A DNA stretch of 35,543 bases from a virus. Taxonomy: Duplodnaviria > Heunggongvirae > Uroviricota > Caudoviricetes. Both the position numbers and the translations under genes were made by a program. The notes beneath the pieces were generated by a model. It saw only the letters and a list, made by a program, of their open reading frames with translations. It ran no database searches and was not told where the DNA came from. The stretch lies in the IMG/VR virus record IMGVR_UViG_2582581022_000006; one strand, given 5' to 3'. Shown piece by piece: positions 24,247 through 30,884 of this stretch; within the stretch, counting starts at the first letter, position 1; each line of letters begins with the position of its first letter.

Positions 24247-24497
24247 TGAAAGAATACCGCTATTCCGGCCCGGCCAGCGGCGTCACGCTGTCGGACGGAA
24301 CCGAAATCCTGCTCTGGCCGGGGAAGACGGTTTCCCTGCCGGAGGAGCATGACTACGTGAAGGTACTGGTGGCGCTGAAACATCTGACGCCGGTACCTGA
24401 AGAGACTAAACCCGCCGGCACACCGGCTGTGCAGTCACCAAAGCGCAGAAGCAGCAGTGACAGCGAAGTGAAAACGGAGGACACCCATGGCAGCTAA
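24243..24497 (+). CDS. Hypothetical late protein (84 aa)
   Basis: Coupled small ORF immediately before the sheath gene. Confidence 0.45.
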   Translation: MMKEYRYSGPASGVTLSDGTEILLWPGKTVSLPEEHDYVKVLVALKHLTPVPEETKPAGTPAVQSPKRRSSSDSEVKTEDTHGS

Positions 24498-25914
24498 CTA
24501 TCTGCATGGTCCCGAAACCATTGAGGTGGAAAACGGTGCCCGCCCGGTTAAAACGGTGAAATCTGCCGTTATTGGCCTGATTGGTACCGCCCCGATGGGG
24601 GATGTCAATACGCTGGTACAGTGCCTGTCTGAGAAAGACGCAGCGGCATTTGGCAGCCAGTTCACCGGCTTTACCATTCCGCAGGCGCTGGATGCGATTT
24701 ATGACCATGGTGCAGGTACCGTTCTGGTCATTAACGTCCTCGACCCGGCGAAACATAAAACGGCGATCGAGGATGAGGTGGTTACCTTTGACAAATCGAC
24801 AGGGCAGGCCAGACTGGCGCATCCGGTTGTCGCTAATGTGGTGGTGAAAAACAGTGAAGGCAGCACCTCCCACACGGCGAACACGGACTACCGTGTTGAT
24901 GCGCAGGCGGGTGTGCTCACGAACCTGGGCAAGGCTATTGAGGCCGGTGGCAGCGTGAAGGTGAGCTATGAGTACGCGGACCCGTCGAAGGTGACTGCGG
25001 CGGACATCATCGGCGGGGTGAACAGCGCCGGAAACCGAACCGGCATGAAGCTGCTTAACGACAGCTTCAACCTGTACGGCTATTTCGCCAAAATTCTGAT
25101 TGCGCCGGTGTTCTGCACCCAGAAGAGTGTCGCAGTTGAGCTTATCGCCATGGCAGAGAAGCTGGGCGCGGTAACCTACATTGATGCGCCTGTCGGTACC
25201 ACCTTTGCACAGGCTCTGGCAGGTCGTGGCCCGGAAGGCACCATCAACTTCAATACCAGCTCCGACCGCGTCCGTCTGTGCTATCCGCATGTGAAGGTAT
25301 ATGACCCGGTGACAAACACAGAGCGTCTGGAGCCGCTCAGCCAGCGTGCAGCAGGTCTGCGTGCCAGAGTCGATCTGGACAAGGGCTACTGGTGGTCATC
25401 CTCCAATCAGGAGATTCTGGGGATCACCGGCGTGGAGCGCCAGCTGTCCGCGATGATTGATGACCCGCAGAGTGAGGTGAACCTGCTTAACGAACAGGGG
25501 ATCACCACGGTATTCAGCAGTTACGGCAGCGGCCTTCGTCTGTGGGGTAACCGGACGGCAGCATGGCCAACGGTCACCCATATGCGTAACTTTGAGAACG
25601 TTCGCCGCACCGGTGATGTGATCAACGAGTCCATTCGTTATTTCAGCCAGCAGTACATCGACATGCCGATTACTCAGGCGCTGATTGATGCACTGACGGA
25701 GTCGGTCAACGCCTACGGTCGCAAAATGACTGGTGATGGTGCGGTACTGGGCTTCCGTTGCTGGTTTGATCCGGCCCGCAATCCGGAGACGGAGCTGGCC
25801 GCCGGGCACCTGTTGCTGAGCTACAAATATACGCCACCACCGCCGCTGGAGCGACTGACGTTTGAGACTGAGATCACCTCGGAATACCTGTTAACCCTGA
25901 AAGGGGGCAACTGA
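24487..25914 (+). CDS. Tail sheath protein (Mu L-like)
   Basis: 475 aa, directly followed by the tube gene. Confidence 0.7.
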   Translation: MAANYLHGPETIEVENGARPVKTVKSAVIGLIGTAPMGDVNTLVQCLSEKDAAAFGSQFTGFTIPQALDAIYDHGAGTVLVINVLDPAKHKTAIEDEVVTFDKSTGQARLAHPVVANVVVKNSEGSTSHTANTDYRVDAQAGVLTNLGKAIEAGGSVKVSYEYADPSKVTAADIIGGVNSAGNRTGMKLLNDSFNLYGYFAKILIAPVFCTQKSVAVELIAMAEKLGAVTYIDAPVGTTFAQALAGRGPEGTINFNTSSDRVRLCYPHVKVYDPVTNTERLEPLSQRAAGLRARVDLDKGYWWSSSNQEILGITGVERQLSAMIDDPQSEVNLLNEQGITTVFSSYGSGLRLWGNRTAAWPTVTHMRNFENVRRTGDVINESIRYFSQQYIDMPITQALIDALTESVNAYGRKMTGDGAVLGFRCWFDPARNPETELAAGHLLLSYKYTPPPPLERLTFETEITSEYLLTLKGGN

Positions 25915-26435
25915 TGTCAAAGATTGAGATAAACCGCATCACGAATGCCAACATCTATCTGGATGGTACTAACCTGCTGGGACGGGCTGAGGAAGTTAAA
26001 CTCCCCGATGTCTCCATGATTATGCAGGAACACAAGGCGCTGGGGATGGTGGGTAAGGTGGAACTCCCGGCTGGTTTTGACAAACTGGAAGGCGAAATCA
26101 AATGGAACAGCTTTTACCGCGATGCGATGCTGTCTGCCGCGAACCCGTACAGGTCGCTGGCACTGCAGTGTCGTTCCAGCGTCCAGCGCTACAGCTCGCA
26201 GGGGCTGATTGACGAAATCCCGCTGGTCACCTTCCTGACGATTATGTTCAAGAAGAACCCGCTGGGGACGTTCAAACAGCACGAGAACGCCGAGTTCTCC
26301 AGTAGCTTCACCTGCACGTATATCAGACAGGTACTGGATGGTGAAGAGCTGCTGCAACTGGACTATCTGGCCAACATCTTCCGGGTCGGCGGTGTTGATC
26401 AACTGACTGACTACCGTATCAATATCGGGGGCTGA
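25914..26435 (+). CDS. Tail tube protein (Mu M-like)
   Basis: 173 aa following the sheath gene. Confidence 0.6.
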   Translation: MSKIEINRITNANIYLDGTNLLGRAEEVKLPDVSMIMQEHKALGMVGKVELPAGFDKLEGEIKWNSFYRDAMLSAANPYRSLALQCRSSVQRYSSQGLIDEIPLVTFLTIMFKKNPLGTFKQHENAEFSSSFTCTYIRQVLDGEELLQLDYLANIFRVGGVDQLTDYRINIGG

Positions 26436-26437
26436 CG

Positions 26438-26719
26438 GTGAGTGTTGAACTGACGGATAAAGGAGGACGATGTGCGGCACTGGGCATGTCAAATGGTACG
26501 TGGTTTACCCTCCTTGATATTCCGGGGGTGGAAACCCTTTTTAATACCCGTAAAACCAATGACCCGATTGACTGCACACGTTCAAAGGCCCGCAAACTGG
26601 CGGATTTGATTGAAGCATGGGAGCCTCCCGACCACTGGTTCTCCGGCACCGGCAAATCTGAGGGAAAGACGCTTCTCATCGCTTTCCTGCGTAACTGCAA
26701 GGGGTTTCGCACTTGCTGA
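26438..26719 (+). CDS. Hypothetical tail-region protein (93 aa)
   Basis: GTG-start ORF between tube and chaperone genes. Confidence 0.4.
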   Translation: MSVELTDKGGRCAALGMSNGTWFTLLDIPGVETLFNTRKTNDPIDCTRSKARKLADLIEAWEPPDHWFSGTGKSEGKTLLIAFLRNCKGFRTC

Positions 26720-26816
26720 CATCACAGGGGCTCCGGCCCCTTCTTCTTAATCTCCTTTAATATCCGTCACGCGCTTCTCCCGACATACTGCCCTGAACTT
26801 ACACAGGAGCACAATC

Positions 26817-27152
26817 ATGTCACAGACCCCATCCGATACTTTTAAATTGTCTTATCCCTTCACCACTGCTGCAGGCACCAGAATTGAGCAGGTTGAACTG
26901 AAACGCCTGACGGTAAAAGACCTGAAGCAGGTGCGCAAAATCAGCAAAAACCCGGCAGACTGGGACGAACCGCTGATTGCCCGCAGTACTGGTCTTCTCC
27001 CGGAAGATCTCGACAATATGGATCTGGCTGATTACCTGCAGTTACAGAAACGATTTCAGCTCATCACGGGGATGGGTGAGAGCAACCAGGGCGCTGACGC
27101 AGGCGCAGGGGCTGCTGGCGAGATGGTTCCGGTTTCAGCCGGGGGAGATTGA
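26817..27152 (+). CDS. Tail assembly chaperone (short form)
   Basis: 111 aa with RBS AGGAG; located between tube and tape measure genes. Confidence 0.6.
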   Translation: MSQTPSDTFKLSYPFTTAAGTRIEQVELKRLTVKDLKQVRKISKNPADWDEPLIARSTGLLPEDLDNMDLADYLQLQKRFQLITGMGESNQGADAGAGAAGEMVPVSAGGD

Positions 27153-27234
27153 TGCCCTCGATACTGACGATCTGGAGATGTGGCTGGAGCAGGCTGAAGA
27201 GCAAATAAAAAGCGAGTACGGCGACAAATCATAG
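26817..27234 (+). CDS. Tail assembly chaperone, frameshift-extended form (putative programmed frameshift; slip site not located)
   Basis: An open +1 frame overlaps the 3' part of the chaperone gene and continues to 27234 (track ORF 26977-27234), the arrangement conserved upstream of tape measure genes. Confidence 0.4.
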
Positions 27235-27309
27235 TACAGACAGCCGCCAGTAGCGGCTGTTCTGCGTTATCCCCTCACGTCTTTTCACCTTCCCCGGAGG
27301 TTAACCACT

Positions 27310-30000
27310 ATGTCGGGACAGTTTTCAGTCGGCGTTGTTATCGGCGGGATGATTGGTAGCACATTCCGTTCTGCAATGAGCGGTACCCGCCGTGCGCTTG
27401 ATTCCCTGAGCGATACCTCACGCCGCCTGCAGGAACGTCAGAACGCTTTAACCCGTGCAACAGAACGTTATGGTCAACTGGGTTCTTCCCGGATGCAGCA
27501 TCTCAACAGCGAGCTGCTGCGGGTAAGCCGCACCATGGAGCAAATTGAGCGCCAGCAGCGCCGTCTGTCAGCGGCATCCGCTACCAGTGATGCGCTGAAA
27601 GCTAACCGCATGGCGCTGTATGGTCAGGGGATTGAAGCGTATGGCATGGCACAGACTGTTTATCATACGGTTTCCCCTGCCGTTCAGCAGTCCATGTCTT
27701 TTCAGGACAAAATGATTGATATGTCGATCACCGCAAAATATGACAATAAAACGCGGGATGGACTTGCCGGACAGATAAAAGGCTGGGCGCTTAAATACAA
27801 TCAGTATCAGGATGAGCTGCAGGAGGCGGTGGGTTCACTCATCAGCGACAATATTGATAATGTGTCAGATATCGGTTTTCTGATGCCGGATATTGCCCGC
27901 GCGGCAACGGCAACACGCACGTCTGCTCAGGACTGGGCAAAAGTGGCCGCAGTCTGGCAAAACTCCCTGAAAGGTGCGGCCAGAGATTTTGGTGCCGTTC
28001 AGAATATTATGGCTTATGCCGGTGACCAGGGGTCATTTGAAATCCCGGATCAGGTCAAGTGGATGCAGTCCCTGGCCCCAATGATGGCGGGTATTGCCAG
28101 TGGAAAAGAGGCTGTTGCTGAAATCGGGGCCAGTCTCCAGATAGCAAAAATCGGTGCAGGTTCCACCGACGAAGCAGCCAATAATTTTAAAAACTTTCTT
28201 ACCAAAATTTTTGCCCGCGATACTCAGAAACAGTTTGCTGATCTGGGTATTGATTTGCAGGGATCTATTGCGAGTTATAAAGCTGCGGGGATCTCTCCGA
28301 TTGAAGGGATGTTGAGTGTTATAGAACGTTACCTCAATGCCAAAAGCCCCGAAGCGCTGGCCGGCTTCAAATCAGCCATGAAAATAAAGAATGATACGGC
28401 AAGAGATGAGGCACTTCAGGCTCTGGCGAAAAACTTTGGTCTGGGCGATATGTTCGCGGATATGCAGGTCATGGCATTTATCCGCCCGATGCTGGCCAAC
28501 ATGGACAGATATCGAGAGATCCGTGCCGGTGCTCTCAGGGCTGCGGATAACGATTTGCTTGCCAGTGCTTATGATCAGCGGCTGAAATCTCCCCTTGAAG
28601 CCACTAAAACACTTATGGTCAGCAGTCGCGATCTGGCAATTACGCTGGGCGATCAATTAGCTCCATCTTTTATTTCTTTGACTCAGGAACTGCTTCCACT
28701 CATTCAGGGGGCAAAACACTGGGTAGCGACTCACCCGCAATTTGTCAGTGGGGCTTTTAAGCTCATCAGTGCGCTCCTTGCGATTAAGATAGCGACTGTT
28801 GGTCTCAAACTGGGGCTGAATCTCCTTATTTCCCCCTTTGTAAGTGTCTGGAAAAATGCTGTTTTACTTCGGGCCAACTGGCTTCGTCTGTCGCTCGCAC
28901 TGGGGCAAGGCGGTAAGCTCCGCTGGCTGGTGACCGGATTTAGCGCCGTCGCCAGAGGAGCCAGAACACTGAGTGGCGTGCTCTCCGAGGGGCTGGTTCG
29001 CGGAATTATGCTCGCCGGACGTGCTGTTCTCTGGATTGGACGTGCGCTGATGATGAATCCCATCGGTCTCGTTATCACCGCTGTCGCGGCAGCAGCTTAC
29101 CTTATCTACCGCAACTGGGGGGCAGTCAGTGGCTGGTTTAAACAGCGCTGGGCAGACATTCAGGAAGCCTTTAACGGCGGCATTGTGGGAATTGGTAAGT
29201 TACTGATTAACTGGTCGCCGGCAGGCCTGCTCTATAAAGCCTTTGCAGCTGCGCTGAAATATCTTGGTGTTGATCTGCCGGCAAAGTTTACCGACTTCGG
29301 TGGCCATCTTGTCGATGGTCTGATTAACGGTATCAAAAACAAATGGGAGTCGCTCAAATCCAGTGTAACCGGAATGGGTGACAGCATCAGTGGCTGGTTC
29401 AGCGAAAAGCTGGGCATTCATTCGCCGAGCCGCGTGTTTATGGGCTTTGGTGACAATATCGCGCAGGGGGCCGCCATTGGCCTGCAGCGGACCACTCCGC
29501 TTGCAGCTCTGGCCGGGCAGCGAATGGCCAGTGAACTGCTCCCCAGAATGCCCGTGAGCATCCAGGGGCCAGAAATACGGGATAACACTTCAGGTGTTCG
29601 CTTCAGTATGCCGTTGCCCGATATCAATGGGTTTATGTCGTCTGCTAAAAATGCGATCGGAGCCGTAATCAATAGTTTGTCTTCCATGCCCGCTATTCCG
29701 CTCTCCACCCGGGCATCGATTTTACCAGGGCAACGTCTGGCAAATGAGATGACACCGGATGTTCCCCGTATCCCCTCGCCTGAAATCCTGGCTGCCGGAT
29801 ATTCAGGCCGTGGTGCAGCTGCAACCAGCGGTGGAACGTCTGGTGGTATCCAGGTCAGCTTTAATCCTCAGTTTTTCCTCAATGGCAGGGAAACCACAGC
29901 GCCTGCAGGACTGACTGGTGCCCTGAATATGAGTCTGCATGAGCTGGAAAAAATGCTGGAGCGTCTGCTGGCTCAGAAACAACGTAAGGAGTACCGCTGA
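27310..30000 (+). CDS. Tail tape measure protein
   Basis: 896 aa, largely alpha-helical composition with a central hydrophobic block; sits after the chaperone pair. Confidence 0.8.
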   Translation: MSGQFSVGVVIGGMIGSTFRSAMSGTRRALDSLSDTSRRLQERQNALTRATERYGQLGSSRMQHLNSELLRVSRTMEQIERQQRRLSAASATSDALKANRMALYGQGIEAYGMAQTVYHTVSPAVQQSMSFQDKMIDMSITAKYDNKTRDGLAGQIKGWALKYNQYQDELQEAVGSLISDNIDNVSDIGFLMPDIARAATATRTSAQDWAKVAAVWQNSLKGAARDFGAVQNIMAYAGDQGSFEIPDQVKWMQSLAPMMAGIASGKEAVAEIGASLQIAKIGAGSTDEAANNFKNFLTKIFARDTQKQFADLGIDLQGSIASYKAAGISPIEGMLSVIERYLNAKSPEALAGFKSAMKIKNDTARDEALQALAKNFGLGDMFADMQVMAFIRPMLANMDRYREIRAGALRAADNDLLASAYDQRLKSPLEATKTLMVSSRDLAITLGDQLAPSFISLTQELLPLIQGAKHWVATHPQFVSGAFKLISALLAIKIATVGLKLGLNLLISPFVSVWKNAVLLRANWLRLSLALGQGGKLRWLVTGFSAVARGARTLSGVLSEGLVRGIMLAGRAVLWIGRALMMNPIGLVITAVAAAAYLIYRNWGAVSGWFKQRWADIQEAFNGGIVGIGKLLINWSPAGLLYKAFAAALKYLGVDLPAKFTDFGGHLVDGLINGIKNKWESLKSSVTGMGDSISGWFSEKLGIHSPSRVFMGFGDNIAQGAAIGLQRTTPLAALAGQRMASELLPRMPVSIQGPEIRDNTSGVRFSMPLPDINGFMSSAKNAIGAVINSLSSMPAIPLSTRASILPGQRLANEMTPDVPRIPSPEILAAGYSGRGAAATSGGTSGGIQVSFNPQFFLNGRETTAPAGLTGALNMSLHELEKMLERLLAQKQRKEYR

Positions 30001-30884
30001 TGTTTGCCGTACTGGGTGATATTGAGTTTGAGCTGATTACCTACTGGGACGGCTTCGAGGCCACGTTCGGCGTCGATTATGCGGAGCATGCCCGCATCGG
30101 GGGTAAGCCTGGCCTGCAGTTCGTCGGCGACAGGCTGGACGAAATCCAGATAACTCTGGTTTTCCATCAGCATTATTGTGTACCCGATGTGGAGCTGGCG
30201 AGACTGCGAACAGCCATGAAAGCCCATCAGGCACTGGCGCTGGTCTTCGGCAACGGTGACTATCGCGGCTGGTTCGTGATTACCGATGTGACTGCAACCA
30301 GCGAGCAGACTGACAGTACCGGCAACGTGCTGGCTGTCAGTGCCACCGTGTCTCTCCGGGAATACACCGGTGACCCGAAAAATCCTCTGCAACCACCGGC
30401 AATACGCACGAAGCTCCCGGGTGTCGGGGCGGTCTCCGGTGCCATACCTTCACCTTCAGGGGTGGCGCAGTTCATCCGCAACGGCGTCAACTATGCGAAA
30501 CAGGCGCAGTCTGTACTCCAGACCACTATCAGCGCCGTTCGGGTGACACAGAAAATGAAGGATAACCCCGTTGTCGCACTGACCCGTGTGCCGGGGCTGA
30601 TGAGCGGACTGGGTAATATCTCCGGGGCTCTGGGGAAAAGTGTTCCGGCGTTTAACGCACTCTCTGAATCCATGCCCGATGCCATCAGTCTGGCCAGAAC
30701 AGCCAGCGAAGCAGCCACGTATGTACAGCAGGCACAGTCTGCGCTGAGTGGTGTGGACAAAAGAAATATTGCAGGTGCTCTGGATACCGTTTCCGGGCAG
30801 CTTAACGCCGCCGGCACAGCATTCAACCGCATGTCTCCGGGATTAAGTGCAATGGCCGCCAGAATACTGACGAGGAGTGTGTGA
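30000..30884 (+). CDS. Tail protein with gpU-like N-terminal domain (Mu N / DNA circularisation protein family)
   Basis: 294 aa; N-terminal MFAVLGDIEFE...LQFVGDRLDEIQITLVF...GWFVITDV follows the P2 gpU pattern. Confidence 0.65.
   Translation: MFAVLGDIEFELITYWDGFEATFGVDYAEHARIGGKPGLQFVGDRLDEIQITLVFHQHYCVPDVELARLRTAMKAHQALALVFGNGDYRGWFVITDVTATSEQTDSTGNVLAVSATVSLREYTGDPKNPLQPPAIRTKLPGVGAVSGAIPSPSGVAQFIRNGVNYAKQAQSVLQTTISAVRVTQKMKDNPVVALTRVPGLMSGLGNISGALGKSVPAFNALSESMPDAISLARTASEAATYVQQAQSALSGVDKRNIAGALDTVSGQLNAAGTAFNRMSPGLSAMAARILTRSV

Follow-up and report, generated by a model that had tools for sequence, protein, structure and literature searches.

How ribosomes reach an open reading frame (ORF) that overlaps the 3' end of a phage tail assembly chaperone gene in another frame is the question raised by this locus. 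It lies in a 35,543-nt stretch of viral DNA (Caudoviricetes; IMG/VR record IMGVR_UViG_2582581022_000006), referred to here as the window, and positions are counted from the first base of that stretch. Tail chaperone frameshifting is a textbook example of recoding. To our knowledge, nearly all known tail chaperone frameshifts are -1, the -2 shift of phage Mu is treated as a curiosity, and the small number of +1 cases are poorly characterised; bacterial +1 signals at sense codons are, as far as we know, rare outside prfB. A sequence-only reading of the gene had proposed a +1 (or -2) event and had found no slippery site by eye. Our analysis supports recoding in the +1 direction as the best explanation of the overlapping ORFs. 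It points to a P2 gpE-type chaperone in which, quite probably, a minority of ribosomes slips +1 at CGA_UUU_C to make a 138-aa fusion that bears an E'-like part.

Genomic setting and frame geometry

The window matches Escherichia phage PhiKM (genus Bcepmuvirus) at 99.5% DNA identity and, judged by its sequence, is the tail module of a BcepMu-like myophage or prophage with a contractile tail. Profile matches place a tail sheath gene at 24487–25914 (Pfam matches), the tail tube gene at 25914–26435 (+ strand, PF04985), the tape measure gene at 27310–30000 (+ strand, PF10145) and a gpU-like gene at 30000–30884 (PF06995). The chaperone gene has the tube gene as its 5' neighbour and the tape measure gene as its 3' neighbour, which is the position of the lambda G/GT class of chaperone genes. 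The 621 bases around the chaperone locus are present in 641 of 5,426 complete E. coli genomes (~12%), and some E. coli strains carry the prophage at 100% identity. A small conserved ORF of 93 aa (26438–26719) sits between the tube and chaperone genes; its weak match to DUF7739 is below threshold, and it is "hypothetical" in every annotation.

The chaperone ORF, which defines frame 0, encodes 111 aa on the + strand from ATG 26817 to TGA 27150–27152, and a Shine-Dalgarno (SD) sequence, AGGAG (26805–26809, + strand), can be read 7 nt 5' of the ATG. PGAP labels 26817–27152 a "phage tail assembly protein", and residues 8–81 match PF10109 (Phage_TAC_7) with E = 3.5e-22 and 78.7 bits against a cutoff of 25. 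Three-frame translation gives the +1 frame its last 5' stop at 26974–26976, after which it is open from 26977 across the chaperone stop to TAG 27232–27234 with no intervening stop. The offset claimed by the sequence-only reading is therefore correct (26977 minus 26817 is 160, and 160 mod 3 = 1), as is its observation that this frame continues past the end of the chaperone. Stops at 27029, 27077 and 27095 close the -1 frame. With the extension in the +1 frame and the -1 frame closed, no canonical -1 heptamer (X_XXY_YYZ) leads into the extension; the slippery site proposed instead is TTT_C at 27054–27057, described below. A second ORF that overlaps the 3' end of the chaperone in another frame, is conserved and has no conserved start of its own is what the lambda G/GT class of gene pairs displays, and the present locus shows the same features.

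The extension resembles the E' part of P2 gpE+E'

The +1-frame extension (27055–27234, + strand; F SSSRGWVRATRALTQAQGLLARWFRFQPGEIDALDTDDLEMWLEQAEEQIKSEYGDKS, stop TAG 27232–27234) is delimited by the three-frame translation and by its synonymous-type variation. Fusion residues 100–132, encoded by 27115–27213 on the + strand, form an E'-like domain that is a probable homologue of PF06528 (Phage_P2_GpE). The extension of the window itself scores 18.3 bits against PF06528 (E = 0.0016), under the gathering score of 23; the profile is matched by 14 of 24 diverse homologous extensions, the best with E = 6.4e-6, and hhalign of the extension family profile with P2 E' returns 89% probability and E = 2e-6. 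P2 gpE+E' itself scores on both PF10109 and PF06528. These profile comparisons point to common ancestry of the extension and E', the part of P2 gpE+E' that is added by frameshifting. A search of the PDB with the fusion sequence returned no homologue.

The predicted products are an unshifted protein of 111 aa and a fusion of 138 aa with the junction ...LQKRF|SSSRGWVR.... Database proteins with this junction were looked for and none was found, as expected if the shift is unannotated; this absence gives no support either.

Single-ORF chaperone-extension fusions do occur in databases (P0001–P0011, L181, L077 and L214). Their frames are joined by 1-nt indels, which lie five codons before the TTT in L181 (Apirhabdus apintestini, ~1160–1190) and in the G5 run in L077, L214 and P0003–P0005. 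They could reflect sequencing errors, or else prophages in which the fusion is the only product. We considered them as a clue to the authentic junction and rejected them, as their junctions are scattered in the manner of indels or sequencing errors.

Selection passes from frame 0 to the +1 frame

We compared 53 unique close relatives, taken from viral contigs, codon by codon. In frame 0, variation is of the synonymous type up to ~27077: synonymous changes are the only ones seen at Thr 27066 (ACT, ACG, ACA or ACC), Gly 27069 and Gly 27075. Past ~27077, frame 0 changes at first codon positions only, and the changes are non-synonymous and even create stop codons. The position of the frame-0 stop itself shifts among relatives, being 27150 in the window type, 27129 in 29 of the 53 and 27087 in one. 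The frame-0 tail 3' of the proposed shift site ("QLITGMGESNQGADAGAGAAGEMVPVSAGGD" from 27057; 27058–27152, + strand) is thus constrained through ~27077 and unconstrained thereafter.

The +1 frame shows the complementary pattern. Every close relative that was examined keeps the extension open and conserved, its Trp codon at 27073–27075 is invariant in the 53, and from ~27076 to its stop the variation is almost all synonymous, as at Arg 27130 (AGA/CGG/AGG/CGC), Gly 27109 (GGG/GGC/GGA/GGT) and Leu 27112 (four codons). Conservation is poor at 27058–27069, where four +1 codons separate TTC from the conserved Trp. Overall, the agreement goes far beyond chance, and these substitution patterns are clear evidence that the +1 ORF is under purifying selection from the invariant Trp codon onward.

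Between 27100 and 27215 the nucleotides of the extension are almost invariant among relatives that differ by 15–25% just upstream, and synonymous sites there are unusually quiet. No conserved RNA structure was detected in this quiet segment over the part covered, which reaches ~27165.

The +1 arrangement recurs without a conserved start

To define the arrangement beyond close relatives, a scan for the extension motif was run with one genome per species and the chaperone frame was set by a chaperone HMM, giving 66 loci. The extension is +1 relative to the chaperone frame in 64 of these, from Gamma-, Beta- and other Proteobacteria, so that comparison with related phages bears out the offset noticed in the window. 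The two exceptions are a locus that ends at a contig edge and L181, in which the 1-nt deletion fuses the frames. The same arrangement is found in BcepMu, a Ralstonia phage, two Pseudomonas phages and a Salmonella element, and the +1 offset recurs in hundreds of independent assemblies. In a Pasteurella phage homologue the same domain is reached through the -1 frame, and a heptamer, A_AAG_GGA, can be read at the end of its ORF.

This recurrence bears on the possibility that the extension is unexpressed, either as a decaying remnant or because the offset is a sequencing error. The sporadic single-ORF fusions in databases could be read in that sense. The same offset in hundreds of assemblies and in 64 of 66 species, together with strong purifying selection on the +1 frame, argues against it, and fusion junctions at many different places are typical of indel errors. 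We regard an unexpressed extension as highly improbable.

Might the +1 ORF instead be a small gene in its own right, initiated in the window at a codon such as GTG 27076 or TTG 26977? Some relatives do have an ATG, GTG or TTG in the +1 frame (at 27097 in the KP12 type, and in BcepMu gp42 and Komp_PAO1_1 CDS0016), and the BcepMu GenBank record assumes a separate gene for gp42. Among 60 unique loci, however, 11 have no start codon in the +1 ORF at all; elsewhere the candidate starts occupy non-homologous positions, and a start accompanied by any SD-like sequence is found in only 8 of the 60. Because the starts are positionally unconserved and mostly lack an SD, independent initiation is not a conserved route of expression for the +1 ORF; the ribosome-binding site and start that would have marked the downstream ORF as a gene of its own were looked for, and none is conserved among relatives. 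The conserved Trp, moreover, lies upstream of many of the candidate starts; the GTG at 27076 is not conserved and has its G-run only 3 nt away; and the homologous P2 domain is made only as a frameshift fusion. A separate gene is thus quite improbable.

A conserved CGA_TTT_C at the proposed junction

The proposed +1 shift signal is CGA_TTT_C (27051–27057, + strand), in which CGA occupies 27051–27053, TTT (27054–27056) is the frame-0 codon for Phe80 and TTC (27055–27057) is the +1 codon. TTT_C coincides with the end of the PF10109 domain and precedes the chaperone stop by 96 nt. Between the point where the +1 frame opens and the conserved Trp, no other element is shared by every lineage. Of 59 unique distant loci, 57 have TTT_C, as do BcepMu, Komp_PAO1_1, Bise and YO107_2; of the two loci without it, L226 has CTT_C in the same place and L190 has a premature stop. 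Among the 53 unique close relatives, CGA 27051 and TTT 27054 are both invariant. Only three of 56 conserved degenerate frame-0 codons lack synonymous variation, and these two are among the three; they are the sole invariant degenerate codons near the junction, and of the 33 conserved codons with four- to six-fold degeneracy in the close relatives, CGA alone never varies. CGA precedes TTT in 51 of 65 loci.

TTT is used by all 16 lineages that share <60% chaperone identity. Some of these have 59–67% GC and use predominantly TTC, and there TTT makes up 7–49% of Phe codons locally; the product of the local TTT frequencies across the 16 lineages gives a chance of ~10^-7.6. The codon comparisons thus show that CGA_TTT_C is conserved beyond what coding needs. 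The frame boundaries of certain relatives confine the event further. In L218, L225, L231, L087 and L088 the +1 frame opens only 8–9 nt upstream of TTT, and in L217, L232, L233 and L235 the frame-0 stop comes only 21 nt downstream of it, which together leave a possible shift window of ~30 nt that holds TTT_C. The A-site codon after TTT, taken over 65 loci, is CAG in 36, CGN in 16, CAA in 6, CTG in 5 and CAT in 2; the window has CAG, which is not a rare codon.

Several other sites were weighed. Candidates near the chaperone stop (27100–27150, including GGG_G at 27108–27111 and the G5 run at 27141–27145) were rejected: selection on the +1 frame begins upstream of them, and many relatives end frame 0 at 27129 or 27087. 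A related reading is a Mu-like tandem -2 slip on the G-run GG_GGA_GAU (27142–27149), just before the chaperone stop, which resembles the Mu signal GG_GGG_CGA (PMC3458567), lies near the frame-0 stop and leads to the same target frame. Yet purifying selection acts on the +1 frame already ~70 nt before the run, and in relatives whose frame 0 ends at 27129 (29 of 53) or at 27087 the stop precedes the run. The run also encodes the Pro-Gly-Glu of a conserved FQPGEI motif and is replaced by CCGAGTGAG (FQPSEI) in most distant relatives. A -2 slip here is scarcely credible. Of the two directions first considered, +1 is the one that stands: tRNA-Phe can re-pair from UUU to UUC, and a -2 shift would allow no re-pairing at the conserved site.

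A +1 shift a few codons downstream of TTT, at GGG_A (27069–27072), is another candidate. Here tRNA-Gly would move from GGG to GGA and the junction would read ...QLITG|WVR.... The GGG is present in 52 of 53 close relatives with the next base free, so that the +1 codon is always GGN; synonymous variation switches from the frame-0 to the +1 type at 27068–27076; and the -1 heptamer of the Pasteurella relative falls at roughly the same alignment position. Since +1 codons 27058–27069 are poorly conserved, a shift at GGG_A could apply within the enteric clade alone. GGG_N is missing, however, from the homologous place in L080/L191, the Salmonella, Ralstonia and Pseudomonas elements, BcepMu and most distant loci, the conserved Gly is accounted for by the frame-0 protein, and this site leaves both the invariance of CGA_TTT and the universal TTT_C unexplained. 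We therefore consider a shift at GGG_A improbable.

Around CGA_TTT_C itself, stimulatory elements were sought in both directions. RNAalifold on 23 diverse sequences gave a consensus of -0.1 kcal/mol downstream with no covariation, and the fold of the window sequence after the shift site was no better than that of shuffled sequence (z = -0.7). Upstream, no SD-like stimulator is conserved among relatives, and the upstream sequence of the window, CTGCAGTTACAGAAACGA, contains no SD-like run. With nothing found to stimulate shifting apart from CGA_UUU_C itself, the event could be very inefficient.

Proposed mechanism

We infer that ribosomes shift at CGA_UUU_C, and likewise how efficiently they do so and what part the products play in assembly. 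Most ribosomes would stay in frame 0 and make the 111-aa chaperone, while a minority would slip one nt forward at CGA_UUU_C (27051–27057). The slip could take one of two routes, both of which would give an identical protein. In the first, peptidyl-tRNA-Phe (anticodon GAA) would re-pair from UUU to the better-matched UUC. In the second, the P site would hold the weakly paired CGA (I-A wobble) and tRNA-Phe would enter on UUC, out of frame. Shifted ribosomes would then read 58 further codons to TAG 27232 and release the 138-aa fusion.

The tRNA-Phe with anticodon GAA pairs better with UUC than with UUU, so at UUU_C it can re-pair fully once it has slipped +1. The I-A wobble pair through which tRNA-Arg(ICG) reads CGA is weak, and CGA may destabilise the preceding codon-anticodon pair and so favour either the tRNA-Phe slip or the out-of-frame binding. 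UUU-pyrimidine sites are prone to +1 shifting in E. coli, as Fu and Parker reportedly found in 1994 and Schwartz and Curran in 1997.

By analogy with lambda G/GT and P2 E/E+E', the C-terminal part of the fusion, the homologue of P2 E', would take the role of the T part of lambda gpGT. The two products, made in a fixed ratio, would act as chaperones of the tape measure protein and bring in tube subunits as the tail is assembled.

A wider claim could also hold, and we put it forward tentatively: that CGA_UUU_C acts in bacteria as a genuinely programmed +1 signal made up of sense codons only, with no need of a stop codon or RNA structure; that it is kept throughout a large clade of chaperone genes from proteobacterial myophages and prophages; and that the E' domain is reached by -1 or +1 shifts (-2 in the Mu analogue) near the same point of the gene.

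Comparison with known frameshift systems

A close counterpart is P2 gpE/gpE+E', which shares the position between tube and tape measure genes, the PF10109 domain and, by family profile comparison, a homologous extension. Like the shift proposed here, that of P2 falls on a Phe codon where the PF10109 domain ends, and the two lie within ~3–4 residues of each other in the alignment. A profile alignment of the chaperone family with P2 gpE has a probability of only 4.9%, although both match PF10109, so the two Phe shift codons can be called homologous only to a precision of a few residues. P2 shifts -1 at the heptamer T_TTT_TTG, whereas the event proposed here is +1, without a heptamer, at CGA_UUU_C, and with a 96-nt overlap with the frame-0 tail.

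Frameshifting at E. coli prfB, a +1 event at CUU_UGA with an SD-like element 3 nt upstream, offers a precedent for P-site re-pairing in bacteria, and the CTT_C of relative L226 recalls its slip codon. Unlike prfB, the present site has a sense codon, CAG, rather than a stop in the A site, and it lacks both an SD-like stimulator and an autoregulatory logic. Outside bacteria, UUU_CGN is the +1 motif of influenza A PA-X and of plant amalgaviruses, where movement of tRNA-Phe from UUU to UUC is the accepted mechanism, efficiency is low and no RNA structure is required (PMC3498833, PMC5052127). The UUU_C core and the proposed tRNA-Phe re-pairing are common to both, and BcepMu reads TCC_TTT_CGC. The motif of these eukaryotic viruses differs in its flanks: the window has CAG in the A site, CGN follows in only 16 of 65 loci, and the conserved flank is the upstream CGA.

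Tail chaperone frameshifts are -1, -2 or +1 in different phages (PMC5009743). Lambda gpG/gpGT resembles the present pair in its shared N-terminus, its place just upstream of the tape measure gene and its presumed fixed ratio (PMC5009743); it differs in that there is no sequence similarity, the lambda shift is -1 and lambda is a siphophage. The gp41 chaperone of Mu shifts -2 at GG_GGG_CGA (PMC3458567, PMC5009743), and the Mu GenBank record notes that this shift is verified. Like the present protein, Mu gp41 is a myophage chaperone with its extension in the +1/-2 frame and a CGA codon in the signal. It has, in contrast, a PF23746 domain, a different extension, a tandem -2 slip on a G-run and a site 8 codons before the stop. 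A match to PF23746 (Gp41_Mu) was looked for at the present locus, with none found.

Annotation, novelty and flanking elements

The 138-aa product is absent from all annotations checked (PGAP, PhiKM, KP12, phiE255, vB_CB2b, Bise and Komp_PAO1_1). The BcepMu record (L084, AY539836, 6859–7364) treats the +1 ORF as the separate gp42 and postulates a -1 slip from it into gp43. In vB_CB2b and Pseudomonas phage Bise, the region that corresponds to "gp43" holds a small gene on the reverse strand. It is therefore likely that gp43 is an artefact and that recoding in fact runs from gp41 into gp42. On this comparison of records, the gp42 to gp43 frameshift proposed for BcepMu is probably wrong.

Frameshifted chaperone pairs are already known; Xu and colleagues are said to have described the Mu gp41 -2 frameshift and the lambda G/GT class of chaperone pairs in 2004. 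What is different here is the direction (+1) and the signal, relative to the homologous P2 E/E+E'. A full-text literature search found no description of this +1 site; an earlier mention in Xu et al. 2004, Summer et al. 2004, Baranov et al. 2006 or Schwartz & Curran 1997 is possible.

The site is a precisely located and deeply conserved candidate for +1 shifting, in a gene found in ~12% of complete E. coli genomes and in every BcepMu-like phage that was looked at. If the proposal is right, the annotation of a widespread essential tail gene could be corrected and a bacterial +1 signal at a sense codon would be added to those known. Homologous genes would then have switched the direction of frameshifting yet kept its site and the architecture of its products. 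Should the wider, tentative claim made above also hold, these genes would offer a natural system for studying what sets frameshift direction, as well as a bacterial counterpart of the influenza PA-X motif.

Two inverted repeats flank the gene. A GC-rich, terminator-like hairpin (AGGGGCTCCGGCCCCT then TCTTCTTAAT) lies at 26726–26741, between the ORF at 26438–26719 and the chaperone start and inside what is presumed to be a single late tail operon. At 27241–27259, between the extension stop and the tape measure start, is a stem-loop with a 7-bp stem (CAGCCGC-CAGTA-GCGGCTG), whose stem is kept and whose loop varies in KP12 and Phi06_2974B; this element could be an attenuator or could affect RNA stability.
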